NCBI GenBank assembly: GCA_040755695.1
Contig: JBFMAK010000003.1
Location: forward strand, 101,879-165,878
Length of the DNA: 64,000 nt
DNA from: Candidatus Iainarchaeum sp.
GTDB taxonomy: Archaea; Iainarchaeota; Iainarchaeia; Iainarchaeales; 1-14-0-10-31-34
Direction of reading: 5' to 3'
Position numbers and translations under genes: made by a program. Each line of letters starts with the position of its first letter. Position 1 is the first letter of the stretch. Shown one piece after another: positions 35,987-64,000 of the stretch. The notes under the pieces are model-generated. The model was not told the DNA's origin and made no database searches. It saw nothing but the letters and a program-made list of their open reading frames with translations.

Positions 35987-35988
35987 TT

Positions 35989-45467: not shown

Positions 45468-45473
45468 ATTTAA

Positions 45474-46154: not shown

Positions 46155-49100
46155 ATGCAATTGATTGCAGAAAAGCTTGGGGCAATCTACGGTAAAGTAG
46201 AGAATGCCTTTTACGGGGTATTAGACTTCCTTGACTCAAAAGGCATTCCAGTTTACGCACTCGTAGACCCGCTGGAAGAGAGGGGCATTCCGTTCTTCCC
46301 GCTCTTTATTGCATTAATTGTAATTCTGATTGGAGGATTTGCTGCATTCACATTAATTGGAACAGGCATTGAGACAACCCTCCAGTTAAGCATTCACGAC
46401 ATACAAAACAAGCCATTGAATGAAGTGAACCTTACAGTGTATGACGACCAAGGGAACACGCTCTTAAGCCAGCCTAACGCAGAAGACAGCACTTCAATAA
46501 AACTTCCAAAAGTAAAGCCTGGAGCAAAGATAAGCCTTTCTGCCTCAAAGCAAGGCTATGAGACAGTGCAGCAGGAGCTTGAAGTGAAAGGCAACCTAAT
46601 TGACGTTTCAATTGCAATGCAGGAAGCGGCTTCAACTATAACCCCAAAAATAAGGTTCATTGATGCCCAAACAAAAACTGCTGTGCCTTATGTTCAGGCT
46701 CACTGGAGCTTCAATGACAACTCACAGGAGGGAAGCTCGGACGAAAATGGTCTAATAGAATTAACAGGAATTCCATTGAATGAAGACATCCTCCTTGAAG
46801 CAATAGCAGACGGATACGAGGATTACTCTGATACAATACAATTCACTTCAGATACAACAAAAGTAATTGAATTAATTCCAGTTGAAGGCTCGCTCACAGG
46901 CCAAAGCACACTAATAGTAAAAGTGATTGACGCAGAAACAAAACAGCCTTTGGACAAAGCAATAGTGCAGGTGTTCGACGAAGACAGTGGCTCCAAGTTA
47001 TATGAAATAATAACAGAACAAGGCGTATTCTCGGAGAAAATAGACAAAGGAACAGTTGTGAGGGTGACAGCAGAAAAAGACGGGTATGTTAAATATGATT
47101 CAAGCGAGGAAAAAAAATTCCTTACCCTGAGAAATGACACAGAAGACTTTGGAACCATAGAATTAGAGAAAGGGGGCAGCAGGATTCAAGTGAATGTATA
47201 CGACAAAGACTCAAAAATGCTTGTAATTGACGCTCAGGTAGCATTATTCAATGACAAAGGAGAAATCATTGACTTCAATGCAACAGAATTCGGGGGCTTT
47301 GTAGAATTCAAGAACCTGGACCCGAATTCCACTTACTACATTGGAACAAGCGCAGAAAACTATCTGACAGACAGAACCAAGCTCATACCAAAAGCACTGC
47401 AGTCAATAAACATTGAATTAGAGAAGATTACAGCAGACAATTCAGGCAAACTGAATGTGTACGTAAACAATTCCCTTGGAAAGCCTGCGGGAAACGCAAT
47501 CCTGAACTTCTATGAAGAAAAAGAAGGAGAAATGCTTTTATTGGGAATTCCAGCACAAAAAACAAGCTCTGATGGAGCCTACAGCACGACAGTAAAAATG
47601 AACCAAAACATTACAGTGAGAGCAACAAAAGAAGGAGAGGAAGGCCAAGCCCAAATAACAATAGAAAAGAAATCAAACGATGTCCTCATAGAAATGCAGA
47701 AAGCAAAGACAGCAAAGACAATAAAATTCTTTGACGAAAAAGGAATTCCAATAATTGAAGGATTGCTTACAATAAAAAGCCAGGCTGGCGAAGTTCTGTA
47801 TGACGGAAATTTGAATGCAGAAGTAATATTTGACACAGCAGGAAATGATTTTGTTTTAGTTCAAGCGCAAACCCCGGACGGAAAAACATTTGAGGAATTG
47901 GTTGACACAAGAAACAAGGATGAACTGTCAATAGAATTCAATAAGGCCCCAATGAACGAATTAGCTCCAAAAATAGAATTCTTGGGCATATTCGACTTAG
48001 AGGAGAATGAAATTGAAGGCCTGACAAAAGGAGAAGAAGCAATACTGAAATTTGAAACCCAATGGATTAAAGGAAACTATTCAGGCGGAGTGCACATTAG
48101 GGTAGGGCCAGACAACATCAAATACATTGACTCGCAGTATGCAGGAATAACAGGCTTTGAGGCCCCAACACAAAAATACTTTTTGGGCAGAACCTACAGC
48201 CCAACCCCTGCTCCAGGAGCAGAAGGCCTAGATTACAGCAACAGAGGCCAAACAGGAGCAATGAACAAATTCTTGGAGTTATATTTCAACAACCCTGAAG
48301 GAACAAAAATAATCAAAGTGAAAGTCCAGGCAAGAGAAACAATAAAAGAAGACAAAATTAATTTAAGTTACAGGGCATGGAGCAAAATTAATGGGCAATA
48401 CAACAGGAATCCAGCTGACACAATATTAAACGAAGAGGAATTCAATGAATCAAAGCAAGGCTTATACGCAGAAACAACAAGCAAAGAAATAAAAGTATTC
48501 ACCACAAAACCTTCATGCTCTGAAGACCTCTGCGCAAACTACTTATTTTACGACGCAAGCGGCAGGTCCTACAGCACAAAAGAATTCATTGCACTCAAAG
48601 ACAATGCTTATGCACTGGAAATAGAATTGAATGCAAGAAAAACAGTCAATGCAATAATCAAGGCTTCAACCAATCCTTCAGCGCCAAAGATTGCATTCAC
48701 AGGAAAAGAGGAAGGAGAATTCACTGAAATAGCAGACAACAATAACTCAGACACCTCAATTGAAACAACAGAAAATGTCACGAGAGCAGAAGCAAAAAAG
48801 ATAAGATTCTACTTTAAGGCAAAAGAGTTAGGAACTTCTTCTATAAAAGTCCAAGCAATAGCAGGAAGCTCTTCAACTGAAGAAGACTTATACTTCAAGG
48901 TGTTCCAAGAAAAAGAAATGAGCCTGACAACAATCCCCTCAGAGCTCAGCTTCGGGAAAGACTTTGAAATACAATTAAAAGGAAAGAATGAAAACGAGCC
49001 CGTAAAGGACGCAGAAATAAAAATCTTTAATTCAGAAGAAAAATTGGTTGAACACATAGTTGGAGACGGAAAAAATGGAACGGGAGCAAACGGAAGATAT

Positions 49101-52100
49101 AAAGTAAATAATAATTTGGGATTAGGAAGCTACAGGATTGAAGCAACTTCCCCTTATTATACCCCAATAAGCTCTGAAATCACAATAGGAAAAGAAGACG
49201 CATTCACTTTAGCAGAAAAAATTTCCTTGTTTATTCCAGCGCAGGAGACAAGCACTGCAGCAACAGAATCTTTGAGTAATAATTCAGGCGAAGACATAGA
49301 TAATATCTCAATTGAAATCATTAAAGAAAAGAATTTCCCTTCAACGCTTGAGGTTACAGCAGAAACAAACCCTTTCATGAATAAGGGAGAGAAAGCAGGC
49401 ATTGAATTGAAAGCAGACTATTCAGGCGACCCAGCAGTAACCGTGCACGGGGAAGCAGACTTAATAATAACAGGAGAAATTAAAGGAAAATTTACTGCAA
49501 AGGCAAAATCCAAAATCATAATAGAATACAACAAGAAATTAGATGGAAGCTGCCTGCAATTAGACAAAACAGAATTAAAGGAATACCTGATAGGCCAAGA
49601 AGGAAACTCAAAAGACTTAGAGCTCACAATAAAAAACAACTGCGGAATGCCCTTAACACTAAAAAGCGAAATAACACCAAAAACAACAAGAGAAGAAAGC
49701 ATTGAATTCATCCTGCCTGAAGTAAGGCTGAAAAAAGATGAAACACAAACAATAAAGATTGGAGTACAGAACAGGATAAGAAGGACATTTGACGCGCAGG
49801 AAAACAAGGACTACACCTTCTTCCTGAAATCCTTCCAGATAACCAAAAGCCTCCCACTCACAATAATTTTATGGGACGAAAAATTCTCTTTAAGCGCCCC
49901 AGCACAGTTAGTATTCTTCCTCACTCAATCAAAAGCAAACCAGAAAGCAGTAAGCTTCCCGCAATTTGTCTATGTAAGAAACACAGGCTTTGCAGACATA
50001 AAAAATTTAACATTAGGAATTGACAGGGTTGACTGGCAGAATGTAGGCATAAGAATCCTGCCAGAACAGGCAGTGCCCTTACTGGCAAAAAGCCAAAACC
50101 TAAACCCCCCTTACATCTTAGTGGCAGAAGGGGACTCAGCAAAAAACAAGTTCGTGAAAGGAAGGCTGCTCTTAAACGGATTCATTGAAGGAAAAAGCTA
50201 TTTGCTCAGAACAATCGATGTATTCGTTTACGTGAGCGCAGGAATGAGCTGCCTTGAAGCATGGAGCGATGAGGACTTACTCTTTATTTCAAGCGAAACA
50301 GGCCCTGTAGTAATACAGAAGCCAATAAAAATATTCAATCATTGTCTTGAGCCAGTGCAGATAACAGGCTTAATGGCTCCAGGGGGAAGCATCCCGAACA
50401 CAGGGAACAATCAATTGTACACTAATGCAAGCAATACAACCTTAATGCCTGACACCCTGGGCGAATTCACTCTCACTTTATCTGCTGACAGGGACTGGCA
50501 GGGAGAATCAACAGTAATACTTAAAGGATTCGGGGTTAACAGCCTGCAGGAGATTGACTCCAGCCCATTAAAGATTTCAATAAAGAAAGGAGAGAATGTA
50601 AGCACGTGCAATGCAGGAGCTGATCAGCCGTGCCTTTCATCTGACTCACAGACCATAGACGTGTGCGGTGAAGGCGAAGGCTCAAAAACAATATTCTGGC
50701 CTAAAATATCACAGAACAACGACTGCACCCAAGGCTACTGCGACGCAAAACAATTATCTGTATTCCTTGCAGAAAAACTGCAGCAGAAAATAAAAGAAGC
50801 AAAATCAAGAATCCTCACTCTAAGCAGTTCATCCCTCAATTTAGGAGGGAAATGCATTGAAGGATACTGCACTTTCGGAGCCTTAGGAGTAAAGCCTGAA
50901 TCATTTGAATTCTACTTCCAGGGAGACAGGCTTGGCACAGGAATATTCGAGAACGAGATAAGGCAAGGGAAATACGATGAATTATTGAATCCTTACATAA
51001 GGGAAAGCGACGAAGACATTACAGACATTGCAAGGTCAGGCTTTACTGGAAGAACAATAATAATTCCAATGCAATTGAAAGGCTGTGGAAGATATACAAC
51101 AAAAATTCTTGGGGCAGTGCAGGAATACAATACAGAATTAAAGCCAGAGAACATTGCAATCCAAGTAAAATTGGACGGGAGAAGGGAGACAACACCAGAA
51201 TGCAATAACAGGATACAGAATGTAATGAACTTCCTTCCAGTAGACAAAGGCTATGATGCAGGAACAAAAGATGCAAGCTGGGCTGCCCTCATAAGAAGCA
51301 ATTCAGACCTGAAAGACATAGCAGAAGACTTCGGGAAAGCATTGTTTGAAACAGAAAAAGGAAGGGTTGTAAGCAGTCCATCAGACAACTACATTGAATT
51401 CGCAGTTGCAGACTTAGGGCAATACATACTCAAAATAGAAATTGAAAGGAAAGGCGCAGCAGACGAGCCAAAAAAAGTTTTAGTAACAATTAATTCAAAT
51501 TACAATGAAGCAAGCGATGAAGTCACAAGAAAAAGCATTGCAACAGAAGCAGGAAACATTATAAGAAGGTTAAAGAACAACAAGATAGACAAGGGCTGCA
51601 TCTCAAAAAACGAAGACTACTTCCTCATAAGCTCAGTGAAAGACTTCAAGGAAGAGGCTGCATTGAAATTAGAAGGACCAAAGGAACTGAAATTATACAT
51701 CAACAAGGAAAGCTGCATTGACCTGAATATTACAACAAAAATTAAGACTGCATTAGACATTGCATTCAATTCCTCTGACTTCAAAAGCAAGGCAGGCATT
51801 ACAAGCATTGGCCTCAAAAAAGAAAAAAAGGATTCAATTGAAGAAAAAATAAGCTTTGAGGCAGGGCAATTGAAATTAAAAGGAAAAGACGAGAAGAATA
51901 AAATTTATTCTGCTTCCTTCCAGTTGTGCGCCACAGCAGACAATGAAGTGCAATACGCAGACTTAAGCGAGGTAACAGTGAACATAGAAGGAATAGACAT
52001 TGAAGACCACAAAATTACACTAAAAATCTGCGGCATAACACCGCAAGACTTGTACGCAGAAGTAAGAAACAACATCAATAACAATGCCTTCAAAGTCGGA

Positions 52101-54050
52101 GAAAAACCTTATTTTGCCACAGTAGGCTGGAACGACAATGGAGATACTTTGAGTCTGGCTGACATAGAGAAAGACTACTACGACAAGCACAAAGACCAAG
52201 ACCCGCAGAATGTGCTAAAGAAAGAAATCAAAACAAAGAGATTAACTGGGATAGGCGCTTATACGGCGGGTTGTGTTGCTGGCGTTTTTGCAACCAATGC
52301 TGCATATACAGTAGTTGGGTTAGGATTTGGAAAAATTTTTTGGGATCTTATATTTGATTGCGGATTGCCCGCAGGAGTGGGAGCGGCAAATGAGTTTGGC
52401 GCATTTGAAGGCAACAGCCCATTAAAGCCTCTGAAAGGAATAATAAACTTTATTGGAGGCGGCATGAACATTGCAGGAAAAGTTGCAGGGGTTGGAGGCA
52501 CAGAAACACCCCCAACCTCTTCAGGGTATAACTTGGAAAACCAGAAATTGGATGACGGCACAGGAACAGAAAACTTAAGTGAACAAGATTTAAGCCTAAT
52601 ATATGGAACAACAGCTATAGATCTATTAGGGAGAGGAATAGCCGGTGGAGCAAAGAAATTAGTAACAAAAGCAGAAGTACCCCAGGCTCCAGCACCAGCA
52701 GTACAAGATTTTGCTAGTCTGGAGAAAAAAATAAACGACTTAGGTTTCTCTATACAAAAGCACAACAATGCAGTAATAAGTGCAAGAAAAGATTATGGAA
52801 AAACTTTATCCAGTAGTCTCCGCCCAGAAGAAGCTGTTGAAATAAGAAAAGCATCTAATCATTTCATAGAAGGAATTTTGAAAGAAGGGCAGGAAATTGA
52901 CGGCATGTTCAGCAAGATGGATAGAACAACGCTTGCAGCACATCAAAACGATTTATTAAAGTTTAAGAAAATGCTGGCTAACATAGAAATTGAGGAAGCA
53001 AAAGGTGGCTCAATAAGAATAATAAGCAAAAGTTCAATAACCAGAGTTCAGACAAGTGTATTAAGTGACCCTGCAGTCGTATCAGACATAGAAAATATAA
53101 TTAAAGCAGGGGGAAAACCCAAAGTCACAGCACTCAAAGAAGTATTATCTGTAATTAAAAGCCCTATTACAAGAGGGATCCTAAAATTTTTAGGTGGGCA
53201 GTTAGGAGGAAAGATTGTGTGGAACTGGTACTGGAAATCGCAAGGCCCAGTTTCTCCTTATGAAGTTACATCTGGAATAGTGAAGACTGAAAGAGGGGTA
53301 ACCTCAAATGTGGATGGAGGCGTTTTCGAGAAAAACCAGACATACAAAGTGTCTTTAAAGAAAGACGAGAAAACAGGCAAACCATTAATGCAATTCGAGA
53401 AAGTGGTAGACTTAAAAGATGTTGACAATGAAAGAAGGCTTGATGACTGCGACGGAAAGTTCCTGGAGCAAAAGCCCCCTGAAGCTAAGACTGCTTTATC
53501 ACAGGCATGTAATATCACAAAAGAAAGTGTAACACCCCAAAGCCTGAGCAGATGCGAGCCATTAAAGACGCCAATAGAAACATTTTCCAGTTCATTCACT
53601 GTTGACCCGCTAATGATGACATCAATTTACTGGCAGGAATCAAAATGCAATCCAAATGAAGCAGACGGAGGGCTATGCCAGCTTACATCAGAAAACAGGC
53701 AAGGGATTACAACAACAGAACAGCAAATACGGCAGTGCACTAAACTTTATTCTGATTGCCTGCAGAATGCCCGAGGCAAGGGCCTTTCAGGGGAAGAAGC
53801 AACGCAATACGCTTTATTCTGCTTCAACAGAGGCCAGGGAACACAGAATCTGGCACTTGACCTGAAATACAATCAAGGGAAAGACAATTATACTGCAATG
53901 GCTGAAGCGTGTTATACTTATTTCAAGAATGGCTGCGGCAAGCTATCAGCAAAAGACTGCTGTGAAGGGGAAGGATTTGGCGCAAGATATCCTGAAAAAG
54001 TTTTAGGAATTTATAATAAGGCGTGCAGCGAGATTGGAACTCCTGCATAA
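46155..54050 (+). CDS. Giant membrane-anchored surface protein (2631 aa) with repeated prealbumin/Ig-like domains, a Gly-rich hydrophobic segment and a C-terminal lytic-transglycosylase (SLT)-like domain
   Basis: N-terminal conserved motif plus TM (…GIPVYALVDPLEERGIPFFPLFIALIVILIGGFAAF). Repeated CarbopepD_reg-like units (VKVIDAETKQPLDKAIVQVFDEDSG...). C-terminal YWQESKCNPNEADGGLCQLT resembles the ES..NP.A...G.GLMQ motif of family-23 lytic transglycosylases. Confidence 0.8.
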   Translation: MQLIAEKLGAIYGKVENAFYGVLDFLDSKGIPVYALVDPLEERGIPFFPLFIALIVILIGGFAAFTLIGTGIETTLQLSIHDIQNKPLNEVNLTVYDDQGNTLLSQPNAEDSTSIKLPKVKPGAKISLSASKQGYETVQQELEVKGNLIDVSIAMQEAASTITPKIRFIDAQTKTAVPYVQAHWSFNDNSQEGSSDENGLIELTGIPLNEDILLEAIADGYEDYSDTIQFTSDTTKVIELIPVEGSLTGQSTLIVKVIDAETKQPLDKAIVQVFDEDSGSKLYEIITEQGVFSEKIDKGTVVRVTAEKDGYVKYDSSEEKKFLTLRNDTEDFGTIELEKGGSRIQVNVYDKDSKMLVIDAQVALFNDKGEIIDFNATEFGGFVEFKNLDPNSTYYIGTSAENYLTDRTKLIPKALQSINIELEKITADNSGKLNVYVNNSLGKPAGNAILNFYEEKEGEMLLLGIPAQKTSSDGAYSTTVKMNQNITVRATKEGEEGQAQITIEKKSNDVLIEMQKAKTAKTIKFFDEKGIPIIEGLLTIKSQAGEVLYDGNLNAEVIFDTAGNDFVLVQAQTPDGKTFEELVDTRNKDELSIEFNKAPMNELAPKIEFLGIFDLEENEIEGLTKGEEAILKFETQWIKGNYSGGVHIRVGPDNIKYIDSQYAGITGFEAPTQKYFLGRTYSPTPAPGAEGLDYSNRGQTGAMNKFLELYFNNPEGTKIIKVKVQARETIKEDKINLSYRAWSKINGQYNRNPADTILNEEEFNESKQGLYAETTSKEIKVFTTKPSCSEDLCANYLFYDASGRSYSTKEFIALKDNAYALEIELNARKTVNAIIKASTNPSAPKIAFTGKEEGEFTEIADNNNSDTSIETTENVTRAEAKKIRFYFKAKELGTSSIKVQAIAGSSSTEEDLYFKVFQEKEMSLTTIPSELSFGKDFEIQLKGKNENEPVKDAEIKIFNSEEKLVEHIVGDGKNGTGANGRYKVNNNLGLGSYRIEATSPYYTPISSEITIGKEDAFTLAEKISLFIPAQETSTAATESLSNNSGEDIDNISIEIIKEKNFPSTLEVTAETNPFMNKGEKAGIELKADYSGDPAVTVHGEADLIITGEIKGKFTAKAKSKIIIEYNKKLDGSCLQLDKTELKEYLIGQEGNSKDLELTIKNNCGMPLTLKSEITPKTTREESIEFILPEVRLKKDETQTIKIGVQNRIRRTFDAQENKDYTFFLKSFQITKSLPLTIILWDEKFSLSAPAQLVFFLTQSKANQKAVSFPQFVYVRNTGFADIKNLTLGIDRVDWQNVGIRILPEQAVPLLAKSQNLNPPYILVAEGDSAKNKFVKGRLLLNGFIEGKSYLLRTIDVFVYVSAGMSCLEAWSDEDLLFISSETGPVVIQKPIKIFNHCLEPVQITGLMAPGGSIPNTGNNQLYTNASNTTLMPDTLGEFTLTLSADRDWQGESTVILKGFGVNSLQEIDSSPLKISIKKGENVSTCNAGADQPCLSSDSQTIDVCGEGEGSKTIFWPKISQNNDCTQGYCDAKQLSVFLAEKLQQKIKEAKSRILTLSSSSLNLGGKCIEGYCTFGALGVKPESFEFYFQGDRLGTGIFENEIRQGKYDELLNPYIRESDEDITDIARSGFTGRTIIIPMQLKGCGRYTTKILGAVQEYNTELKPENIAIQVKLDGRRETTPECNNRIQNVMNFLPVDKGYDAGTKDASWAALIRSNSDLKDIAEDFGKALFETEKGRVVSSPSDNYIEFAVADLGQYILKIEIERKGAADEPKKVLVTINSNYNEASDEVTRKSIATEAGNIIRRLKNNKIDKGCISKNEDYFLISSVKDFKEEAALKLEGPKELKLYINKESCIDLNITTKIKTALDIAFNSSDFKSKAGITSIGLKKEKKDSIEEKISFEAGQLKLKGKDEKNKIYSASFQLCATADNEVQYADLSEVTVNIEGIDIEDHKITLKICGITPQDLYAEVRNNINNNAFKVGEKPYFATVGWNDNGDTLSLADIEKDYYDKHKDQDPQNVLKKEIKTKRLTGIGAYTAGCVAGVFATNAAYTVVGLGFGKIFWDLIFDCGLPAGVGAANEFGAFEGNSPLKPLKGIINFIGGGMNIAGKVAGVGGTETPPTSSGYNLENQKLDDGTGTENLSEQDLSLIYGTTAIDLLGRGIAGGAKKLVTKAEVPQAPAPAVQDFASLEKKINDLGFSIQKHNNAVISARKDYGKTLSSSLRPEEAVEIRKASNHFIEGILKEGQEIDGMFSKMDRTTLAAHQNDLLKFKKMLANIEIEEAKGGSIRIISKSSITRVQTSVLSDPAVVSDIENIIKAGGKPKVTALKEVLSVIKSPITRGILKFLGGQLGGKIVWNWYWKSQGPVSPYEVTSGIVKTERGVTSNVDGGVFEKNQTYKVSLKKDEKTGKPLMQFEKVVDLKDVDNERRLDDCDGKFLEQKPPEAKTALSQACNITKESVTPQSLSRCEPLKTPIETFSSSFTVDPLMMTSIYWQESKCNPNEADGGLCQLTSENRQGITTTEQQIRQCTKLYSDCLQNARGKGLSGEEATQYALFCFNRGQGTQNLALDLKYNQGKDNYTAMAEACYTYFKNGCGKLSAKDCCEGEGFGARYPEKVLGIYNKACSEIGTPA

Positions 54051-54071
54051 ATTTTGTTTTGGTGTTATTCA

Positions 54072-55721
54072 ATGAAAAGCAAAGGCTTTACATTATTCAC
54101 TGCTCTGGTTTCTTTTGTGCTGATTGTGCTAAGCATTCTTTTAGTGCAGGGAATGATTAATGCAGAGAGGGCGAGAATTGACACTATAACTGCAATAGAA
54201 GAGCAGGCTAAAATGCAGGAGATCGCAGACCATGAAAGAAACGATGCGCTGCAATTGCTTGTGTACGACATCAGGTTTGAGCTGGAGGACTACTTCAACA
54301 GGGAAGACAAGATAGGCCCTTTATGCTATAATTGCAGCTTTGATGAATTAGTCCAGCAGTTTGCTGAAAGCAAGTTCGGCGCCTGCTCCAGAGAAATGCC
54401 TGCAGAAGAATGCAACAGGACAGGGGGGGAACAATTAGCGAATTTTGTTGCAGCAACCTTGTACGGGCAATTAAGCTCGACAAAAACAATAGGCTCTTAT
54501 TACATTAAAACTGACCTGGGAGATGAAACAGAGCTCAAGTCAAGCCTGAAAAACTTGATTAATAAAAGTGCAGGGCAAGGATCTTTTTTTAAAGTAATTG
54601 AATGCGAGAACGGAGACCCTAAAAACTGCACTGGAACATTCTATCTTTCCTTGAGGGTAGGAGACCTTTCAAACGAAGAATACGAGAAGCTGCCCAGAAT
54701 TTCAGTCACAAACACGCAGACAGGCAGAGTGCTTCAAGTTGCAGTCCTTCCAAGAAGCAACTTCCAGATTTATGTGCCTTTAAGATTCTTCAAGGCAGTG
54801 GCAGAAGCAAGGGCACTAGTAATGGAGTACGATAAAGAGGATTCTGGAAGCTGGAGCAGTAACATGGGGTTATTCAGCCCGAGAATACACAACGAATTAG
54901 AAGAATTGAAATTAGGAATGTGCGACAAAGACATTTGCAATTATAGAACAAATCCCTATAAGCCCCCAGACAGTGAAACAATGAGCACGGCATGGTGCCC
55001 TAATGAATTGGCCCCCCCGCCACTAGATCAAAGCATAAATTGCGATAGTCTATTATTTTCTTTAGGGTTTTGCGATGGCAGAATTACAAAATATAACCCA
55101 TCGAAAAAGAAAGACATAGAAGATGCAGTAATAGAATTGACAAAAAAGAGGTTGTATAATTTAATTGACAATAAACTTAACATTTACCTAAATAATGACC
55201 CTAATTTTAAATATGTTGGTAGCGAAATTACCCCTGCTGTCGAAGTAAAAAATTCAAAGATTATTTTTTCGAGCGGAAGCTTAGCATCAGTATCTGGAAA
55301 TAAAGATTGGTCTTACAGGGACCCTTGCTCTTACACTAATACTGGAGTTTGGCTTGAAAATAATAAAATAAAAGGAGAAAAAATTTCTGGTGAATGCGAA
55401 GGAGATCAATCAGGCACTTTAGGTCACGGTTTTTGCGGGGAACTCTCATCAATTGATGTTGTATTTAAGTTCAATGAATTAAATCCGCTTTATGCAGTAA
55501 ACAAAAAAAAACCTGAACACAAATATTCAATCTGGTTTGAAGACAATCTTTATTCATCTTTTACAGCAAAATATGAAAGAAAAGCAACAAACAGTGACTG
55601 TGCACTTAATGGAGAACCTCAGCCTATTTCAGGCGGATGCAATTATGTTGCTGGGTGGAGTTGTTTTGTTGAAATTCCAATGAGTGGCTCATACGAAGGA
55701 TGCCAACCAAAAGCCCCTTAA
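54072..55721 (+). CDS. Cys-rich pilin-like secreted protein (550 aa) with class III/type IV-pilin-type signal peptide
   Basis: MKSKG|FTLFTALVSFVLIVLSILL (a G|FTL-type prepilin motif). Many Cys residues. GGTG RBS upstream of the ATG at 54072. Confidence 0.6.
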   Translation: MKSKGFTLFTALVSFVLIVLSILLVQGMINAERARIDTITAIEEQAKMQEIADHERNDALQLLVYDIRFELEDYFNREDKIGPLCYNCSFDELVQQFAESKFGACSREMPAEECNRTGGEQLANFVAATLYGQLSSTKTIGSYYIKTDLGDETELKSSLKNLINKSAGQGSFFKVIECENGDPKNCTGTFYLSLRVGDLSNEEYEKLPRISVTNTQTGRVLQVAVLPRSNFQIYVPLRFFKAVAEARALVMEYDKEDSGSWSSNMGLFSPRIHNELEELKLGMCDKDICNYRTNPYKPPDSETMSTAWCPNELAPPPLDQSINCDSLLFSLGFCDGRITKYNPSKKKDIEDAVIELTKKRLYNLIDNKLNIYLNNDPNFKYVGSEITPAVEVKNSKIIFSSGSLASVSGNKDWSYRDPCSYTNTGVWLENNKIKGEKISGECEGDQSGTLGHGFCGELSSIDVVFKFNELNPLYAVNKKKPEHKYSIWFEDNLYSSFTAKYERKATNSDCALNGEPQPISGGCNYVAGWSCFVEIPMSGSYEGCQPKAP

Positions 55722-55906: not shown

Positions 55907-58900
55907 ATGGGGTTGAAGGAATTCTACCACAGCATTGAAGACGCTTACTATGGGTTAATGGACCAACTGGACAGGGCGGGAATTCCAGTATACAAAATAA
56001 TTGACGCAATCGAAGCAAAAAACATTCCGTCATTTCCGTTCTTCTTATTGTTTGTAATAATAGTGCTGTGCGGCCTCTACTTCTTTGTTGCAGTCCCAAT
56101 GCTTGGGCCTTCAATGAATTCTTTTTCCTTGGTTGTGGCAAGCGACAAAGGCCCAATAGAAAATGCTGTAGTGAAACTCCAGGTTGACGACAACATTACA
56201 ACCTATGTTACTGACGACAAAGGAAAGGTCTCCCTCACAATAACCAAAGGCAAAGGATTCCAGCTGACAATATCAAAAGAAGGATTTGAAGAAAAAACGC
56301 AGACCTTCAGCGCAAACGAATCAGGAGCAACAATCACATTAAAGGGCCAGACAAAAACAGTTACTGTAAGGCTGCTCAAGGCAGGGACAAGCGAAATAAT
56401 AAGCCAGGACGTAAGCGTTTCATTCTATTGTTCAGGCAACTCCGATTATTATAAAACTGAAACATCAAGCGACGGAGTAATAGAATTAGCTGATGTTCCA
56501 TATGACTGCGGGACAATCACAGCAGACTCAAGGGAGTTAAGCTGTACAGACTGCAGTTTTGACTCAAGTGACAGCAGTTCCTCAATCTACTTGCAAGAGG
56601 AAGAGCAAGGAAAAGGCACTGTAACATTAAGCGTGCAGGACGAAAACCTGGAGCCAATAGCAGGAATTATTGCAAGGATTATTCCAAACAATGGGAGCAC
56701 AACAGAGGAAACGAGGTGTACAACAACAGGAACAGGCGCGTGCACTGCAAGCAATGTGCCTTTCGGGGAATACTATTTCACTCTGACAGACAGCAGCGAA
56801 AAATATGAGTTCTATGATTCTTCTCTGAAAAACAATTTCATTACAGTCAATTCTTCAAACACTAACGCTTACTTAAGCACCATAACATTAGGCGAAAAGG
56901 TTGTAGGCCAAATAAAAGTAAAAATAATTGATGATTCAACAAAAGAAGCAGTTAATGGAGCTGAAGTGAAATTATTCAAGGACGGAAAAGAGCTGTACAC
57001 AAAAAATTCAGGTGAAGACGGGATTGTAGTATTTAATGTAAGCGAAAATGTTTCCTACTTCCTTACAGTGAATCATGTTGATTACTTGATTCCTGGCCCG
57101 TTGGCAGGAATAAAGCCGAGCGATGAAACAAGAGAAATAGAATTAAGCAGGGCTGACTCAACAAACAGCCAGCGGATTGAAGTTCAAGTATTGGACGAAA
57201 AAGAAGAGCCAGTAGAGAACGCAAAAGTATTCCTGAAGGACGCTGACAGGCCTTCAGTGATAATAGGCCAAATGCTTGTAACAGGGGTAGATGGAAGAAC
57301 CCAATTCGAGAGAGTGAAAGAAGGAAGGTATTTAGTTTACGCGGAAAAAACAGGGTTCAAAGGAAAAAATTCCGATGAAATAGTTACAGTAAAACCAAGG
57401 CAGCCTGCCTCTACAATAGTTAACTTGACAATAGGCCAGGGCACAATAGAATTAAAGGTATTGAACGAAGAACAGCAGGGCATTCAGGGGGCAACAATCA
57501 AAGTAATGGACTACTTTACAGGCACAGAAATTGCAACAGAGCTTACAGACACGCAGGGAGAAAAAACATTGACTTTAAGGGCAGACAAGAAAGTTTACTT
57601 GATTGCAAGCGAAAGCACCAAAGCAGATTATACTACAACCCCAATCCAGTTATTCCAGGGCGCCCAAAGCAATACGATAACCATGGTGGACCAAAGCAAT
57701 GCAAAAAACTTCAAGGTATTATTGAACGGAATTTATGGTATGGATGAACAGGCAGTAAGCGAAGGACAGGGAGAAACAGCAACAGTGCTTGACTCAGGCC
57801 AAAGCTTTAAAGTGAAATTGCAATTAATCCTGCCTAATGCATCCTACTCAAGCGCTGGAATACATTTAAGGACTGGAGCAGACACAGAAAACCAGGATAA
57901 CATAATGGAGCAGGACGACTTATACTTAAAGGATATTACTGCACCAAATGCAAGGATAATTAAAGGAACTTCCTTCAATCCTTCAAACGGTTACTCGATA
58001 GACTCGCAGCATTTAACTTCAGGGAACTCTAAATGGGCTAATGTAATTTTTTCTAATCCGAGAGCAGGCGTAATTGAAGCAGAAGGCGTAATTCAATTAA
58101 GGGGAAGCCCTGCAAGCACTCAAATGAATCTGGCTTACAGGGGCTGGGCAGTATCAGGCGGAACATACTTAAGGGACCCTTACGATTCAGAACTAAAAGA
58201 ATCTGAAAGCACTGCAACAAAACAGTCCTTGTACGCAAAAGCAAAATACGAGCCAATAAGAACTGGAAGCTCTTCACTCTGCACTGAGAAGTTCTGCTAC
58301 TGGTTCAGGATAACAGACCAGAGCACTGGAGTGCAGACAACTGTATCGGACAGCATGCCTGCAGAAATGTCCAATTCCTATCAACTTGAATTCAATTTAA
58401 TAAGCTTGAGCGAACAGAAATTCTATGAAGTCTCATTAAGCATTGCAAATGACAGCCAAGGAATTGAGTTTAAGAATTTTAATATCGCGGGAGAAAACAA
58501 GAATTTAAAGGCATCAAAGATTTTGAAGCCTTTGGGTGAAATAAGCAAAGGAGAAAAGATTTCAGGGACAATAGAATTCACTACAAAAAAAGAAGGGGTA
58601 AACAAGATAGACTTCGGCTTGAGCGCCAAAACCTCTCTTGGAACAGAAAAAGCATTCTTTAAGTCAATCAAAATTGACGTGCAGGCAGCAGGGGAATTCG
58701 AATTACAGGTTGTGCCTGCAGTACTAGTTTCATTAATACAGAATGATATAATAGTGAAGGCAGTTGATTTGTTAGACGGAAGCCCTGTAAGCGATGCCAC
58801 CATAAAAGTAATGAAAAACAATAATAATTTGTTTTCAGGGACAACAAATTCGGATGGAATTTACTCTTTCTCTCTTGAGCCAATGAGCACGGGAACAAAG

Positions 58901-61900
58901 GTTTCAATAACTGGAAACAAGATAGGATTCAAGGAAGCGGAAAAAGAGCTTACGACAACAGAACAGGTCCTGCTTGTAAGCCCTGAAAGCATTAGCGAGA
59001 GCTTCAATGCAGCAAAAGATGTAACCATAAAAAGAGACCTTATATTAAGGAACACAACTGAAGTGCCTTTGACTGTAAGGGCAATTGAATTCAGCGACGA
59101 CTTCAGGAAAATGGTGAACTTAAATTTAAGCGACGGAATAATAGGCCAGGAAATGACAAGCAGCGTGGATTACAACACATTGCTCTCAATGAGGATGACC
59201 CCTGCAGGAAGAAATATTGAAGAATTAACTGAATTGAACGGAAAAATAATTATCACGCTGGAAAGCATCCAGATTGGAAGGCAGTGGGCGCAGGAAATCC
59301 CATTAAACATTACAATAGGATTAGGGAATGAAGTAGATGACCCTTCATGTTTAAGCATAAGCCCTAATGAATGGAGCATTTCAATTGAAGGAGGAAAAAT
59401 TAAAACAAAATCTTTTGCCCTGGCAAACAACTGCAAGGTTGAAGGAAAACCCCTTGAATTAAAGAGGCTGCAGGCAAGGATTGCATGGGAGAACGGCAAT
59501 GAGACAGGAACATTCACTTCAAAGCTTGAGGGAAGCTCACTGCAGTTAGGCACAAGCTGGAAACAAATTTCAGGAACATTAAAGCCTTCAAGAGGGGACG
59601 GAACAGGAATAGAAATCCAGTTCAAGGCAGACGACATAAGCTCTGGAACTGGAGAACCAAAAATTGAATTCAAGGCAGAGAACAGGACACAGCAAGGCAT
59701 TGAAGAATTAAGCACTTCAATTAAAACAAGCCTTAACGTAAGCAAATTAACAGAATGCGTGCAGGTAATTCCCACAGGGCAGCTGAGAGTAGAATTAGGG
59801 CCATACAATTTAGGTTACGGCCTTTACCCGCAGCAATTCGGGTACAATCCTTATCAGCAAGCACCATACTATTACCAGCAATACAATTCATTTTATCCGG
59901 GCACATCATACGGAGGATACGGAAACAACCCTAATGTAGTAATGTACCCAGAGCAATTAAACCAAAGATATCCTTACTCTTATTTCTCAGAGCCATTAAC
60001 CAATTCATTCTATTACGACAACCAGTACAATTATGCTTTCCTGCCGCCGAATTCTGGAAGAAACAATTTCAGAGTGCAGAACAACTGCTCTAATACAGTG
60101 CAGGTAAGCATTGAGCCAGACCAGGCACTAGGAGTATCAAAGAATACCTTGACATTAGAGCCAGGCAAAGACGAGCAAATAAATGTTTACTCGACATTAT
60201 ACGCAGGAAATTACGGCATAATAGTAAGAGCGCAATTAAAGGATTCAACAGAAGGCAAAGCAGACATCACAAGAATTCCAGTACTGGTGGAATCAGAATA
60301 CTTCAGGGATTACAGGGATTGCATCTTCCTCAACAAAAGAACATTCCAATTCAATGACTTCATAGCAAAGCCCGACACAGGAATAATATTCAACAAATGC
60401 TATGACGTGGGAGTAAGGCTGAATTATGACTCAATTGGAATCACTTGGGGCTGGAACTACAGCAATACTCCAGGCAACACTGGCAGCAACCAGCCATCGC
60501 AGCAATCAATATCTGTAACGCCAGGAATAATAAAAGACATAAGAGTGCTTGAACTCCTTGAAAAGCCAGGGCCAGACAACAAGATAATACAGCAATTAGA
60601 ATTCGAAATGATTAAAGACATAGAAAAAAGCTACAGGAATGACATACTGGAAAAATTCAAGGCAATAGATGCAACAAAAACGCCTATTACAGAAATAGGA
60701 ATATACAGGGCAAAAATAACAGCAGGATACTATGAGGTTGAAGCACCTGCCAATCTCTCAGTGAAATTCATCAACAGGGTAGGCGCAAGCGATTCATTAA
60801 ATTTTAACATAACAATAGAAGACAAGTGGGCTGCCCTTCCATTGATATCAGAAGAAATTAATTTCGGTGACCCAGCCATAACAAAATTCCAGAGCTGCAT
60901 TAACGGCGATGCCTTAAATGTAAAAAATTACTGGGCGGGAAGAGGAAACGAAGGCTGCCTTGAAGAAAACCAATTCATTAATGATATTTACGAGCACGAA
61001 TCGGACACTAAAGTAATGAAAATTGCCAAGCAAGGAGGCTGCGGGAGCGTTGACAGTTTAAGCCAGATAAGCCCGCAGACCTACACCGACTCTGCAAGCG
61101 GGCTAAAATTAACATTCCAGACAGTAGACGGAGGCCACAACATAAAGCTTAGAGTGGACAAAAGCAATATGACAACACAAGAAGCAACAATTAACACTAC
61201 AATCTACGCAAACCTTACAAGAATGACCCCTTCAGGAAACCAGAAAGTATATATTCCAGTCAACGTGTGCGTGAAATTGAAGGAAGCCCCTCCAATTGCC
61301 TTGACGCCTGAAGAAAAGATATGCAAGGCAAAAATAGTGAGCCCGGAAGGGCTTTCATTGGAAGAATTGAAAAAGAAGATAGAGGAATTGTGCGCCAGCC
61401 TTCCGGCAGAAGGAAAGCAGAAAGTGGAGGACGCATTGAAAGCACTCTTATCCAAAGAAGAGAAATGCGATGAAGGCACTACAGGAAAAGGCGCTTCAAT
61501 AAAATACGGTTTCGACAAATTAAGCTTTACGTGGAATCCGGAAAAGATAGACGGGCAGTTCTGTTACGGCAGCTTCTGCGATGCAGCGCAGAACTCCATT
61601 GCCTCAGTGAAGAAACTAGAGGAAATCAAGAAATTCATTTCAGGAAAAGAAACAGAATTAACTGCAGCATGCGAAAAAGAAAAAACGTTCTTGCCAATTG
61701 GGGGAACTATTCATATTGAAAGCACGGCATGCAATAATAAGGATGCAGCCAATCTTTACAGGTTCGCAGTAAGCCAGGCAAGAGTTGTTGATAAAATCAC
61801 GGCAAACGAATTGGTGTTCTTTACAGGAGAAGACGGAATAATTGAGGGAAGCAAAATTGATTCCTCCGACGAGTACATCAAGACAATGGCAAGCAATGTA

Positions 61901-63544
61901 CTTAAATTTGACACTATGGCAAATGTCATTGAATCAACGCAGAATATCCTGAACGTCCTAAAAGATAAAACTGGCGGAAAAACGGACAGCATTGTAATGG
62001 AAATAAATTATAACGATGCAACAAAGCAGTACTACGCCAGCCACTTCGTGCCATTGGGAATAGAAGACCTGCAAGGGTTCACGCAAAAGAAGTATGTGAT
62101 GACATTCAATGAATTCTCTGCATTCCACAAGGCATTAAAGGCAGTAATTGACGGAAAAATAGCGTGCAACAGCACAACAACCACAAACTGCTACAGTCCA
62201 GACAAAAAGAATTATTATATTTCAGGTCTGACAGCGCCAGTAACAGCAGAATTCCTGAGGTCATTGTACAACAACCTTTCATTCAAGAACGGAATAAGGA
62301 ATGCGCCTGAATTAAGCAGTGAAGAAATACAGACAATACTGAAGGAAGGAAAATTGAAGGTCACAACAAGCGAAATTAATTCAATTGACAAGTTTGAAAA
62401 AATGTACAAAGAAAACATTGACTCAAATGTCCTGCTGATGAAGGACTCTTACACCAATGACTTCAAGGAAGACTTCTTGATTTCTTACTCAAAAATTGGG
62501 ACAGAAAAATTAGACCAGTTCGACAGCGATTGGAGCTTTATTTTAGGGAACAACATGCAGGCAAGCGTTGAAGCAGGAAGATACGAGCAGGTGATAAATT
62601 ATAATTGGGAGACAAAGAAAGTGAGTGTAAAACTTACTCAGCAAGAAAATCTTGAACAGATGGATAAGAGGACAGGAAACAGCTACAAAGACAATTACTT
62701 CTTCTCATTGCCATTCGACGGAAAACTTGGGTTAGTAAACACCACTTACTCAAGAGACGGCTACGGAGTAGGCTATGGCACATTGAATGCCTCATTCTAT
62801 GTAAACAAAGATGAGGGCAATGTGAACACCTACAATGTAACAGCAGAAAAAACAACAGGAAGCAGCAATGGATTAATGAAGTTTAATGCGGATTTAAGGC
62901 AGAAATTCGAGCAGACAAGAAATGGAACAGTGCTTTCAGTTGACGGCACTGCAGGCAAATTTGAATTCACTCCCTCTACTCCAATCATTGTTTCAGCAGA
63001 ATTAAATGCTTCAACAGCAGAAAAGAGGGGAATGCTGTATGAATTGGAAATGAATTCAAAGGAATTAGGCATAGCAGACGAAACTAATCTGACAAACATT
63101 TTCAGCTGGACTTCATGCTCCGGAAGTCCAAAGAATGACTCAAAAACAAAAATGAATGCACTGGAATCAAAAGCAGGCACTGTAGAGCATTACGGCTTGA
63201 TTGAAAACCCGGGCAGTGCAATAACTTATGCTTCTTTATCATTCATGCCTTCAAGCTCGAATTACTTCATGGTGTACCAGTTGTTCAAGAACGTGAAGAA
63301 CTTCACTGTATTCCACTCCTATAATGAAAGCACTGGGAAATTCACTGAATCTGTTTTAAGCGAGTCAAGCAAGAGGGTTGGAAAAAGCGATGTAACAGGC
63401 GCTACAATCCAGGGAGAAAACATAAAAGAATGGGTTAACAGAATAGAAAAAAGCCATGTGTGCGTCAAGCCTTTGAGCCAAGGAATTGAATTAAGCTGGA
63501 ATAAAGCAAAACTGCTGGAGGAAGCAGGAACACAGTGCAAGTGA
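55907..63544 (+). CDS. Giant membrane-anchored surface protein (2545 aa), paralogue of 46155..54050
   Basis: N-terminus MGLKEFYHSIEDAYYGLMDQLDRAGIPVYKIIDAIEAKNIPSFPFFLLFVIIVLCGLYFFVA matches the N-termini of the other two giants. Repeated prealbumin-like domains. Internal Q/Y/N-rich low-complexity segment. Confidence 0.8.
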   Translation: MGLKEFYHSIEDAYYGLMDQLDRAGIPVYKIIDAIEAKNIPSFPFFLLFVIIVLCGLYFFVAVPMLGPSMNSFSLVVASDKGPIENAVVKLQVDDNITTYVTDDKGKVSLTITKGKGFQLTISKEGFEEKTQTFSANESGATITLKGQTKTVTVRLLKAGTSEIISQDVSVSFYCSGNSDYYKTETSSDGVIELADVPYDCGTITADSRELSCTDCSFDSSDSSSSIYLQEEEQGKGTVTLSVQDENLEPIAGIIARIIPNNGSTTEETRCTTTGTGACTASNVPFGEYYFTLTDSSEKYEFYDSSLKNNFITVNSSNTNAYLSTITLGEKVVGQIKVKIIDDSTKEAVNGAEVKLFKDGKELYTKNSGEDGIVVFNVSENVSYFLTVNHVDYLIPGPLAGIKPSDETREIELSRADSTNSQRIEVQVLDEKEEPVENAKVFLKDADRPSVIIGQMLVTGVDGRTQFERVKEGRYLVYAEKTGFKGKNSDEIVTVKPRQPASTIVNLTIGQGTIELKVLNEEQQGIQGATIKVMDYFTGTEIATELTDTQGEKTLTLRADKKVYLIASESTKADYTTTPIQLFQGAQSNTITMVDQSNAKNFKVLLNGIYGMDEQAVSEGQGETATVLDSGQSFKVKLQLILPNASYSSAGIHLRTGADTENQDNIMEQDDLYLKDITAPNARIIKGTSFNPSNGYSIDSQHLTSGNSKWANVIFSNPRAGVIEAEGVIQLRGSPASTQMNLAYRGWAVSGGTYLRDPYDSELKESESTATKQSLYAKAKYEPIRTGSSSLCTEKFCYWFRITDQSTGVQTTVSDSMPAEMSNSYQLEFNLISLSEQKFYEVSLSIANDSQGIEFKNFNIAGENKNLKASKILKPLGEISKGEKISGTIEFTTKKEGVNKIDFGLSAKTSLGTEKAFFKSIKIDVQAAGEFELQVVPAVLVSLIQNDIIVKAVDLLDGSPVSDATIKVMKNNNNLFSGTTNSDGIYSFSLEPMSTGTKVSITGNKIGFKEAEKELTTTEQVLLVSPESISESFNAAKDVTIKRDLILRNTTEVPLTVRAIEFSDDFRKMVNLNLSDGIIGQEMTSSVDYNTLLSMRMTPAGRNIEELTELNGKIIITLESIQIGRQWAQEIPLNITIGLGNEVDDPSCLSISPNEWSISIEGGKIKTKSFALANNCKVEGKPLELKRLQARIAWENGNETGTFTSKLEGSSLQLGTSWKQISGTLKPSRGDGTGIEIQFKADDISSGTGEPKIEFKAENRTQQGIEELSTSIKTSLNVSKLTECVQVIPTGQLRVELGPYNLGYGLYPQQFGYNPYQQAPYYYQQYNSFYPGTSYGGYGNNPNVVMYPEQLNQRYPYSYFSEPLTNSFYYDNQYNYAFLPPNSGRNNFRVQNNCSNTVQVSIEPDQALGVSKNTLTLEPGKDEQINVYSTLYAGNYGIIVRAQLKDSTEGKADITRIPVLVESEYFRDYRDCIFLNKRTFQFNDFIAKPDTGIIFNKCYDVGVRLNYDSIGITWGWNYSNTPGNTGSNQPSQQSISVTPGIIKDIRVLELLEKPGPDNKIIQQLEFEMIKDIEKSYRNDILEKFKAIDATKTPITEIGIYRAKITAGYYEVEAPANLSVKFINRVGASDSLNFNITIEDKWAALPLISEEINFGDPAITKFQSCINGDALNVKNYWAGRGNEGCLEENQFINDIYEHESDTKVMKIAKQGGCGSVDSLSQISPQTYTDSASGLKLTFQTVDGGHNIKLRVDKSNMTTQEATINTTIYANLTRMTPSGNQKVYIPVNVCVKLKEAPPIALTPEEKICKAKIVSPEGLSLEELKKKIEELCASLPAEGKQKVEDALKALLSKEEKCDEGTTGKGASIKYGFDKLSFTWNPEKIDGQFCYGSFCDAAQNSIASVKKLEEIKKFISGKETELTAACEKEKTFLPIGGTIHIESTACNNKDAANLYRFAVSQARVVDKITANELVFFTGEDGIIEGSKIDSSDEYIKTMASNVLKFDTMANVIESTQNILNVLKDKTGGKTDSIVMEINYNDATKQYYASHFVPLGIEDLQGFTQKKYVMTFNEFSAFHKALKAVIDGKIACNSTTTTNCYSPDKKNYYISGLTAPVTAEFLRSLYNNLSFKNGIRNAPELSSEEIQTILKEGKLKVTTSEINSIDKFEKMYKENIDSNVLLMKDSYTNDFKEDFLISYSKIGTEKLDQFDSDWSFILGNNMQASVEAGRYEQVINYNWETKKVSVKLTQQENLEQMDKRTGNSYKDNYFFSLPFDGKLGLVNTTYSRDGYGVGYGTLNASFYVNKDEGNVNTYNVTAEKTTGSSNGLMKFNADLRQKFEQTRNGTVLSVDGTAGKFEFTPSTPIIVSAELNASTAEKRGMLYELEMNSKELGIADETNLTNIFSWTSCSGSPKNDSKTKMNALESKAGTVEHYGLIENPGSAITYASLSFMPSSSNYFMVYQLFKNVKNFTVFHSYNESTGKFTESVLSESSKRVGKSDVTGATIQGENIKEWVNRIEKSHVCVKPLSQGIELSWNKAKLLEEAGTQCK

Positions 63545-63558
63545 ACGGTGAAAGAAAA

Positions 63559-64000
63559 TGGGAGTAACAGACTTTTATTACGCGCTCGAAGACAAATACT
63601 ATGATTTAATGGACAGGATTGACCGGGTCATCCCAATACACAAGATAATTGAGCCAATAGACAAGGTCTTCCCCTCATTCATTCTGTTCATTATAATTAT
63701 CCTGCTTCTCATAGGCTCAGGGATTTACTTGGCATTAGGAGGACTGCCAGGAAAAGACGTGCAATTAACATTCCATGTAACAGACCAGAGCAGAAGCAGC
63801 CTGAACGCAATAAGCATTAGCGCAACACATGATTCAAAAACCGAAAGCCTTACAACAGACATGACAGGAAAAACAATGCCCTTGACAGTGAAAGCAGACA
63901 CAATTGTTTCATACGAGATAGATGAAAGCTCCTACGAAAAATTAAGCGATTCAATTAAAGTCGAAGAAAACAAGACATTAACGCTCACCCTTTCGCCGAA
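63559..64000 (+). CDS. Third giant-protein paralogue, 3' truncated by window edge
   Basis: MGVTDFYYALEDKYYDLMDRIDRVIPIHKIIEPIDKVFPSFILFIIIILLLIGSGIYLALGG has the same N-terminal motif plus TM. A prealbumin-like domain starts (LTFHVTDQSRSS...). Confidence 0.6.

Follow-up and report, generated by a model that had tools for sequence, protein, structure and literature searches.

A conserved N-terminal motif shared by an array of four giant, probably surface-exposed proteins of Iainarchaeota

The DNA analysed here is a 64,000-nucleotide stretch from Candidatus Iainarchaeum sp. (contig JBFMAK010000003.1, positions 101,879 to 165,878; the whole stretch is called the window), and its final part raises the question why this archaeon should carry a row of giant genes whose products all begin alike. 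The original prediction, made from the letters alone, had described three consecutive giant paralogues on the plus strand and had assigned them to a small-genome archaeon; the source is indeed a small-genome archaeon of the DPANN group. We identified an array of four giant genes (g1 to g4) whose products share a conserved N-terminal motif that is directly followed by one transmembrane helix. We give a probability of roughly 0.55 to the reading that the giants are N-in/C-out anchored surface proteins, each composed of a stalk and a head and used for cell-cell contact, in which the motif serves as a juxtamembrane assembly or sorting module. In g1 the order of parts is N-terminal motif, transmembrane helix, prealbumin-like stalk, cysteine-rich distal region and an end resembling a soluble lytic transglycosylase (SLT). 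The genes of the array in the window are:

46155..54050, plus strand: giant 1 (g1), 2631 residues (AB1467_05960 / MEW6295803.1)
54072..55721, plus strand: large pilin-like protein, 549 residues, between g1 and g2
55907..63544, plus strand: giant 2 (g2), 2545 residues (AB1467_05970 / MEW6295805.1)
63558..64000, plus strand: giant 3 (g3), first 147 of 2206 residues (AB1467_05975 / MEW6295806.1), running off the window

Both g1 and g2 are intact open reading frames that match their NCBI proteins at 100%. The start codon of g3 is the ATG at 63558, 14 nucleotides after the g2 stop, and the full-length g3 protein (MEW6295806.1) is identical to the window reading frame over its first 147 residues. 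The three giants counted originally are intact and are annotated in an NCBI metagenome-assembled genome labelled Candidatus Diapherotrites archaeon, but the array has a fourth member outside the window, g4 (2467 residues, MEW6295807.1), which is the next gene after g3 on the same 192-kb contig and also bears the motif. This placement of g4 is based on consecutive NCBI accessions on the same contig and on fourth giants in the related loci L080 and L081. Together g1 to g4 amount to 9849 residues, and the whole cluster of four giants and the pilin-like gene covers about 31 kb, of which the window holds the first three giants. Assembly chimeras interrupted by frameshifts had been named beforehand as one finding that would refute the prediction. 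The reading frames are uninterrupted, and collinear orthologues of g1, g2 and g3 in independent assemblies are 2649, 2535 and 2232 residues long; near-equal lengths and collinearity in independent assemblies exclude such artefacts. TATA-like boxes and purine-rich ribosome-binding sites were read by eye upstream of g1 and g2, and the pilin-like gene and g3 start close behind the preceding genes, which suggests two transcription units. The G+C content of the window is about 40%.

The N-terminal motif occurs in a longer variant in g1- and g2-type proteins, extended by four residues (…D.[IL]E..[NG]IP[SF]FP), and in a short form in g3- and g4-type proteins. In the window its copies are:

46155..46298, plus strand: long variant in g1, residues 1-48, ending in LGAIYGKVENAFYGVLDFLDSKGIPVYALVDPLEERGIPFF (profile match of 85 bits over residues 1-64)
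55907..56038, plus strand: g2 motif, residues 1-44, ending in FYHSIEDAYYGLMDQLDRAGIPVYKIIDAIEAKNIPSFP (BLASTP)
63558..63680, plus strand: short variant in g3, residues 1-41, ending in DPIDKVFPSF

The prediction that the genes are paralogues with a common motif and one following transmembrane helix was borne out by BLASTP and by hydrophobicity analysis. In BLASTP comparisons of the first 75 residues the similarity is significant for each pair (E=2e-18 for g1/g2, 7e-13 for g2/g3 and 0.008 for g1/g3), so that the doubt raised beforehand on this point does not apply. The consensus of about 42 residues reads (M)G..D.LK.FYY.LEDKYY..LDK[IL][DN]EK(G)IPVYK[VI][IV]DPIDK[VI][FV]PSF, and an example of the peptide is EFYHSIEDAYYGLMDQLDR. 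Its first half places the hydrophobic residues Y, L, Y, L and I at 4-3-4-3 spacing and, going by the consensus, would form an amphipathic Tyr/Leu heptad helix with an acidic back; the second half is a linker punctuated by prolines that ends in P-S-F. This triplet is conserved at 100, 93 and 93%, is the most conserved element of the motif and lies directly before the membrane helix. The net charge of the module is -2.3. Long DNA repeats between the paralogues are absent, the shared repeats being short and of chance length, and invariant DNA columns in the motif region are mostly at codon positions 1 and 2. Together these two results indicate purifying selection on the peptide and rule out recent gene conversion as the source of the shared motif.

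We compared a profile of the motif, 62 positions long, with 1.84 billion cluster representatives (clusters at 50% identity). At E<=1e-3 it retrieved 913 proteins, and at the stricter limit of E<=1e-10 the number was 358. Of the 150 best matches, 141 start no further than 20 residues into the protein. Most motif proteins are 1000-3250 residues long; those that are shorter probably come from short contigs and are incomplete. Pfam searches with the N-terminal 60 residues of 69 motif members gave no family at E<=1 beyond scattered noise, and neither an NCBIfam model nor a PDB sequence matched the motif. In the searchable literature we found no description of the motif family, of a four-gene array with a pilin-like gene or of a restriction of either to Iainarchaeota; the family is previously undescribed and has no database model. 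With at least 913 clusters, the motif is a compact signature that could become a family model for metagenomes and proteomes, and it offers a defined peptide for interaction and localisation work.

A scan of one genome per GTDB species gave 221 confirmed genomic occurrences of the motif. Because the scan used two consensus peptide patterns, along with an alignment of 12 closer sequences, the lineage distribution that it returns is biased to consensus-like copies, and divergent copies may exist elsewhere. The best 76 of the 221 loci lie in records named Iainarchaeum, Diapherotrites or 'archaeon', including the complete genome of archaeon GW2011_AR10. The exceptions among these 76 are metagenome-assembled genome contigs labelled 'Micrarchaeota' (three), 'Chloroflexi' (two) and 'Thaumarchaeota' (one), labels that probably reflect binning or labelling errors. 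Orthologues of g1 in the same synteny are 28-75% identical to it, and from 75% down to about 29% identity the same order recurs: an archaeosortase gene, a g1-type giant, the pilin-like gene, a g2-type giant, an optional membrane protein of about 155 residues, a g3-type and a g4-type giant. The arrays of relatives contain two to four motif giants together with the pilin-like gene. An iterated-profile neighbour search of the 76 loci recovered the archaeosortase and the pilus genes in a few only; at most loci the giants themselves fill the 10-kb flank. At about 31 kb, the lineage-wide cluster is a considerable investment: it would take up about 2.5% of a genome as large as that of AR10 (complete, about 1.24 Mb). 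The optional membrane protein has four helices and about 155-170 residues, and lies between g2- and g3-type giants in many relatives, among them L080 (17708-18187), L005 (9457-9921), L019 (7731-8231) and L056 (9434-9907); it is missing from the window and from its closest relative.

The segments that follow the motif in g1 and g2 are:

46299..46370, plus strand: g1 membrane helix, residues ~49-72 (Kyte-Doolittle value of 2.85 over 19 residues)
56039..56110, plus strand: g2 membrane helix, residues 45-68 (hydrophobicity scan)

Across the family the uncharged run after the motif measures 24-32 residues (median 28), and its flanking charges range from near neutral to acidic at either end. The most likely topology for every giant is that of a type II (N-in, C-out) membrane protein with a single helix. 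A cytoplasmic position of the motif would follow solely from placing the remainder of the protein outside the cell, and that part of the protein begins with the repeats of the stalk:

46374..47696, plus strand: g1 stalk of five tandem prealbumin-like (CarboxypepD_reg-type) repeats of ~85 residues each, residues 74-514 (iterated family profile and Pfam)
48954-49223, plus strand: sixth g1 repeat, residues 934-1023 (iterated profile)

The layout is common to g1 to g4: five to six repeats lie between residues ~70 and ~595, and after an interval free of repeats a last one occupies ~935-1020, with none detected further on by the iterated profile. This amounts to six or seven repeats per giant, seven of them in g2 (residues 75-594 and 945-1021). 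Self-BLAST found no internal repeats, and the iterated profile was needed to reveal them. Membership of the prealbumin-like fold is supported by PF13620 (CarboxypepD_reg), which scores 61.4, 88.7, 46.6 and 64.8 bits in g1, g2, g3 and g4 against a cut-off of 32.3; g2 also matches SpaA (PF17802, 42.4 bits against 23.1) and bMG3 (39.5 bits). Ig-like repeats had been predicted to build the ectodomain; they are present, but the iterated profile assigns only about 25-40% of it to them. An alpha-2-macroglobulin-like thioester protein was ruled out: CxEQ is absent from g1 to g4, and the MG matches are to single beta-sandwich repeats.

Beyond the stalk the paralogues differ. The distal ~60% of the giants is cysteine-rich and matches no known family, and cysteines, which total 34 in g1, 31 in g2 and 18 in g3, occur as close pairs. 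By BLAST, g1 is alignable to g2 over residues 1-970 only (24% identity, E=1.6e-39), and its alignments to g2 and g3 are limited to the first 800-970 residues; g2 and g3 align over residues 1-1286 and in a C-terminal block. Read by eye, an internal block W.W…C…YCD[AS]TQ[FL][SA]I.L.KK is common to all giant types and a terminal …VC…WWNPK… block to g2-g4. Sequence and profile searches of g1, g2 and the two C-terminal alignments against PDB sequences found nothing. Two elements stand out in the distal part of g1:

52272..52361, plus strand: Gly/Ala-rich hydrophobic loop closed by C2040 and C2069, which are invariant in seven orthologues
53553..54047, plus strand: predicted SLT-like (GH23-type) lytic transglycosylase-like domain, residues ~2467-2631 (WQES...NPN...GGLCQL)

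The C-terminal ~550 residues, at 7-20% identity, are by far the most variable part of the g1 orthologues. As judged from sequence motifs and a structure model, g1 probably ends in a divergent lysozyme-like domain. In the orthologue P0009, which is 34% identical to g1 overall, a clear SLT domain occupies the same position (55.4 bits), and in the closest, 75%-identical orthologue SLT scores 16.0 bits (E 0.009). The catalytic Glu in an E-S motif and the G-L-x-Q-type motif are present in g1 (WQES…GGLCQL) and in P0005 (LQES…GGICQL), and both align with IETES…GLMQI of P0009. Foldseek searches of PDB with a low-confidence model of g1 gave the lytic transglycosylases MltE and MltC and the phi6 lysin as top matches (probability 0.91-0.99, E 0.17-1.4). 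Since the scores in g1 are weak, the SLT domain is clear in P0009 and the fold matches have weak E-values, the lysozyme-like domain is graded as probable only.

A second type of operon, found in the relatives' loci L028, L033, L037 and L063 (at about 10000-19900 in each), encodes stalk and head as separate polypeptides. Its first gene specifies a motif protein of ~1245 residues that matches only the first ~1000 residues of the giants (E 1e-33 to 1e-36), and its second a protein of ~590 residues with a signal and a C-terminal helix. The third product, of ~1100-1147 residues, is a head homologue with an ordinary secretion signal; it ends in WWNE.KF…C and matches the C-terminal ~500 residues of g2-g4 (E 1e-15 to 1e-31). 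The fourth gene encodes a membrane protein of ~335 residues. The separate genes indicate that an anchored stalk and a secreted head were either fused to give the giants or split apart to give the second operon type, and the fused and split forms give natural domain boundaries for expression. The secreted head homologue also points to an extracellular position for the bulk of a giant and, by consequence, to a cytoplasmic one for the motif, and is the best evidence that we have for this orientation. The split operon lies downstream of a conserved gene block whose members look by eye like glycosyltransferases and a deacetylase. The g4-type giants (P0060 at residues ~1490-1530, and also P0128 and P0171) contain in mid-protein a basic cluster, KDKKKRK, and after it a strongly hydrophobic segment of 23 residues that looks like an internal signal-anchor. 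The internal hydrophobic elements, that is the g1 loop and this g4-type segment, may be relics of the signal peptide of the head protein.

In the mechanism that we propose, a single helix would anchor each giant, and a stalk of prealbumin-like beta-sandwich repeats would project outward from it, followed by the non-repeat core, one more repeat and a disulphide-rich distal head of about 1500 residues. The heads would act at a distance from the cell, and the four paralogues would supply different ones. In g1 the putative lysozyme-like (SLT/GH23-type) domain of the head would cut peptidoglycan, which would imply contact with bacterial cells as hosts or prey. The motif would keep the N-terminus inside and fix the topology, and might assemble or sort the giants through self- or hetero-association of its heptad helix, through docking to a cytoplasmic or membrane partner, or both. 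Co-assembly with a pilus-like structure, suggested by the embedded pilin-like protein and the adjacent machinery, is the weakest step. The surface- or host-interaction role that had been proposed from the letters fits the paired cysteines, the Ig-like repeats, the probable lytic transglycosylase end, the pilus-like neighbours and the secreted head of the split operons. To our knowledge no member of the Iainarchaeota has been cultured; the cluster is a testable handle on how these archaea touch other cells and on whether their partners are bacteria.

Several results count against parts of this proposal. The N-terminal module carries a net negative charge (-2.3), and the two sides of the helix differ little in charge; in principle, the reverse orientation could be favoured by such an acidic tail combined with a long helix. 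In g1 itself SLT (PF01464) is the sole Pfam match at the C-terminal end and stays below threshold (13.1 bits against 21.3, E 0.07), and profile-profile comparison (hhalign) of the g1 C-terminus with the SLT domain of P0009 was not significant (E 0.39). The AlphaFold2 model of g1 residues 1990-2631, built from 7 sequences, has a predicted local distance difference test (pLDDT) score of 42 and is confident in the C-terminal domain only (60-82); that of g2 residues 1650-2545, built from 8 sequences, has a pLDDT of 52, and Foldseek found no fold match in PDB for the g2 head. Pilus genes are absent from the 10 kb around the motif genes of the split operons, which makes a mechanistic link between motif and pilus weak. 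Finally, we know of no host for Iainarchaeota.

Other readings of the array depend on its neighbours as well as on the giants. Genes that lie upstream of g1 include:

44284..44853, plus strand: exosortase/archaeosortase-family protein, 189 residues (TIGR04178 47.5 bits against 23; PF09721 27.1 against 25.7)
44859..46055, minus strand: nucleotidyltransferase (MNT) and HEPN pair (PF01909, PF05168), between the archaeosortase gene and g1
32306-32956, minus strand: polytopic membrane protein of 216 residues, paired with the following protein as its partner
27803..32296, minus strand: secreted protein of 1497 residues with a PEP-CTERM-like C-terminus (LPSLPENP, transmembrane helix and basic KNRKRK tail), no family match

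The archaeosortase has the catalytic residues of its family (C in 'LCTG', R in 'NLARIVF' and H in 'LTHD'); none of the named subfamily models reaches its cut-off. It holds the same position in L001, L003 and L082. In L083, orthologues of the 1497-residue protein (32% identity, same C-terminal signal) and of the 216-residue protein (26%) adjoin the giant array. To judge from its C-terminus, the 1497-residue protein is likely a substrate of the archaeosortase or a candidate surface-layer (S-layer) protein. A tripartite C-terminal sorting signal is absent from the giants, of which g1-g3 have soluble, cysteine-containing ends with no C-terminal helix; this rules them out as conventional archaeosortase substrates. 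The MNT/HEPN pair is found in the same place in the distant relatives L001 and L082. Toxin-antitoxin-like modules do not usually keep their position in this way; the pair brings to mind the MNT-HEPN family that is spread across DPANN (PMC6393860).

A structural role in the envelope is the alternative that survives best, although we regard it as unlikely. The giants would then be S-layer-like or stalked wall proteins, anchored at the N-terminus and possibly hetero-oligomeric, with the motif serving lattice or bundle assembly. In favour of this, the multi-copy cluster is conserved throughout the lineage, the repeats are laid out identically in the four paralogues, hydrophobic residues form a heptad-like face on the first helix, and the adjoining archaeosortase and the protein with a C-terminal sorting signal are typical of envelope biogenesis. 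However, the heads differ between paralogues and the divergence at the end of g1 is a better fit to interaction modules than to a lattice; an SLT-like domain would have no role in an archaeal wall, and the 1497-residue protein is the better S-layer candidate.

Somewhat less probable still is that motif and hydrophobic stretch form an extended cleavable secretion signal, which would pace or direct export and then be removed, leaving the giants released or otherwise held. Conserved N-terminal extensions on giant surface proteins are an established theme in bacteria, as in the ESPR of autotransporters and two-partner secretion exoproteins and the YSIRK-G/S signal of Gram-positive proteins. As in ESPR and YSIRK, a short conserved sequence sits at the extreme N-terminus of very large exported surface proteins, directly before the hydrophobic export segment, and the motif is confined to that position. 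It differs from both in that it is unrelated in sequence, archaeal, 42 residues long, acidic and Tyr-rich, and precedes a helix of ~28 residues that is anchor-like, not a cleavable core. The uncharged run is well above the 7-15-residue core of cleaved signals, the region before it is acidic where a Sec signal has a basic one, and no conserved small-residue cleavage motif follows the run. Neither the 69 N-termini nor the full-length giants match the Pfam models of ESPR (PF13018) or YSIRK (PF04650).

The protein encoded between g1 and g2 bears on a further alternative, and its identification as pilin-like agrees with the prediction. Its N-terminus, MKSKG followed by FTLFTALVSFVLIVL, is a class III-type signal in which a basic leader with a [KR]-G site precedes FTLF and a hydrophobic helix (MKSKG before the ~20 hydrophobic residues of FTLFTALVSFVLIVLSILLV), and the protein contains many cysteines. 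The ComGF model matches its N-terminus only, with 18.4 bits against a cut-off of 80. Positional homologues in nine loci are 475-624 residues long with a conserved [KRH]G-F-[NT]-[LM]-F N-terminus, and the class III pattern is seen in the intact N-termini of those in L003, L045 and L056. Type IV pilus-like machinery spans 37312..42018 on the minus strand and is kept upstream of g1 orthologues in L001, L082 and L083. The pilus-type genes near the array in the window are:

39733-42018, minus strand: enlarged T2SSE ATPase, 761 residues (PF00437 60.2 against 24.9)
37312-39687, minus strand: enlarged T2SSF platform protein, 791 residues (PF00482 27.0 against 25.2)
33644..36752, minus strand: five small proteins, candidate pilins with one N-terminal hydrophobic helix each (sequences and transmembrane scan)

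The two candidate pilins that were scanned (35447-36001 and 36228-36752) match no Pfam family, and no prepilin peptidase was identified among the scanned open reading frames of the window. Two basic helical proteins (42110-43218) and a membrane protein of 331 residues (43224-44219) are also encoded upstream of the array on the minus strand. A second, more conventional set lies at 22304-25540 on the plus strand (T2SSE ATPase of 491 residues, 129 bits, and two membrane proteins with T2SSF domains), so that there are two distinct machineries of pilus type in the window. The relative L001, at 75% identity, has a pilus-type ATPase (2431-6252, minus strand) of 1273 residues that contains a LAGLIDADG intein; the window copy is intein-free.

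About as improbable as a cleavable signal is a motif that docks the giants to the enlarged ATPase and platform, which would extrude or assemble them with the pilin-like protein into a pilus-tip or fibre complex. The pilin-like gene lies inside the array in every relative, T2SSE and T2SSF genes precede the g1-type gene by no more than 10 kb in the window, L001, L082 and L083, and both machinery proteins are enlarged. In other archaeal loci, the tips of pili have been predicted to carry large adhesins (PMC4858521). Against this, the giants have no class III signal, their 42-residue leader being acidic with no [KR]-[GA] site before the helix, and neither the split operons, with their lack of nearby pilus genes, nor the negative result for a prepilin peptidase among the scanned reading frames fits such docking. 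Pilus clusters that encode large surface proteins and minor-pilin-like proteins show a similar gene arrangement within or beside the pilus genes; the giants differ from those surface proteins in that they contain neither DUF2341 nor PilY1, have their own N-terminal anchor in place of a pilin-type signal and are not universally linked to pilus genes.

That P-S-F and the helix form an N-terminal mirror image of the PGF-, PEF- or PEP-CTERM sorting signals, processed by the adjacent archaeosortase, is very hard to sustain: P-S-F is the most conserved element directly before the helix, and of the five relatives' loci with a visible upstream region, four have the archaeosortase gene immediately before g1, but in all known substrates the signal is C-terminal and its motif faces outward, whereas here the motif would be on the cytoplasmic face, a conventional candidate substrate (LPSLPxxP, transmembrane helix and basic tail) is conserved nearby, and the array of L083 has no archaeosortase directly upstream.

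Among known giant-surface-protein systems, the array resembles several in function and passes the membership test for none. The Giant1-5 cluster of Apilactobacillus kunkeei consists of consecutive genes for paralogous extracellular proteins of 2000-8000 residues; as in Iainarchaeota, they have an elongated shape, carry a binding domain at one end and take up several per cent of a small symbiont genome (PMC12863079). They differ in being bacterial and unrelated in sequence, with a functional beta-solenoid at the N-terminus, and in having no shared cytoplasmic motif with anchor, no pilin-like gene and no pilus machinery (PMC12863079). The 'large lytic murein transglycosylases' of Woesearchaeota and other DPANN archaea, which have been read as tools against bacterial walls, are likewise very large archaeal proteins with a GH23/SLT-type domain (PMC9723730, PMC10936187). 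In the present array, by contrast, the SLT-like domain is a sub-threshold, variable C-terminal module of one of four paralogues. The giants also bring to mind the SPEARE proteins of Nanohaloarchaeota, reportedly giant surface proteins of DPANN episymbionts that are proposed to mediate host contact and to carry protease, adhesion and endonuclease domains. None of these three domain types was found in the giants, and no homology to SPEARE proteins was detected.

A bolder form of the stalk-and-head proposal combines its steps. The motif would be a new archaeal sorting and assembly signal that bundles the four giants and the pilin-like protein into a hetero-oligomeric, membrane-rooted organelle, with a peptidoglycan-cutting enzyme and cysteine-closed hydrophobic loops at its tips, which Iainarchaeota would use to attach to bacteria and breach them. 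We consider this doubtful, on a par with the structural envelope role. If true, Iainarchaeota would live on bacteria as episymbionts or predators, by means of an attachment and penetration machine of a kind not known before.

Further features of the window lie at a distance from the array. An RNA element reading of the region was ruled out, as the Rfam scan of the window finds only a tRNA; this is a tRNA-Gln (CTG) at 14070-14142 on the minus strand, the sole tRNA gene of the window. Beside it, at 14218-14694 on the minus strand, an open reading frame of 158 residues resembles by eye a fragment of a DDE transposase or integrase core. At 11062-13833 on the plus strand, a FAD-dependent, geranylgeranyl-reductase-like protein of 923 residues is split by a LAGLIDADG intein (Intein_splicing, 65 bits, residues 277-813).

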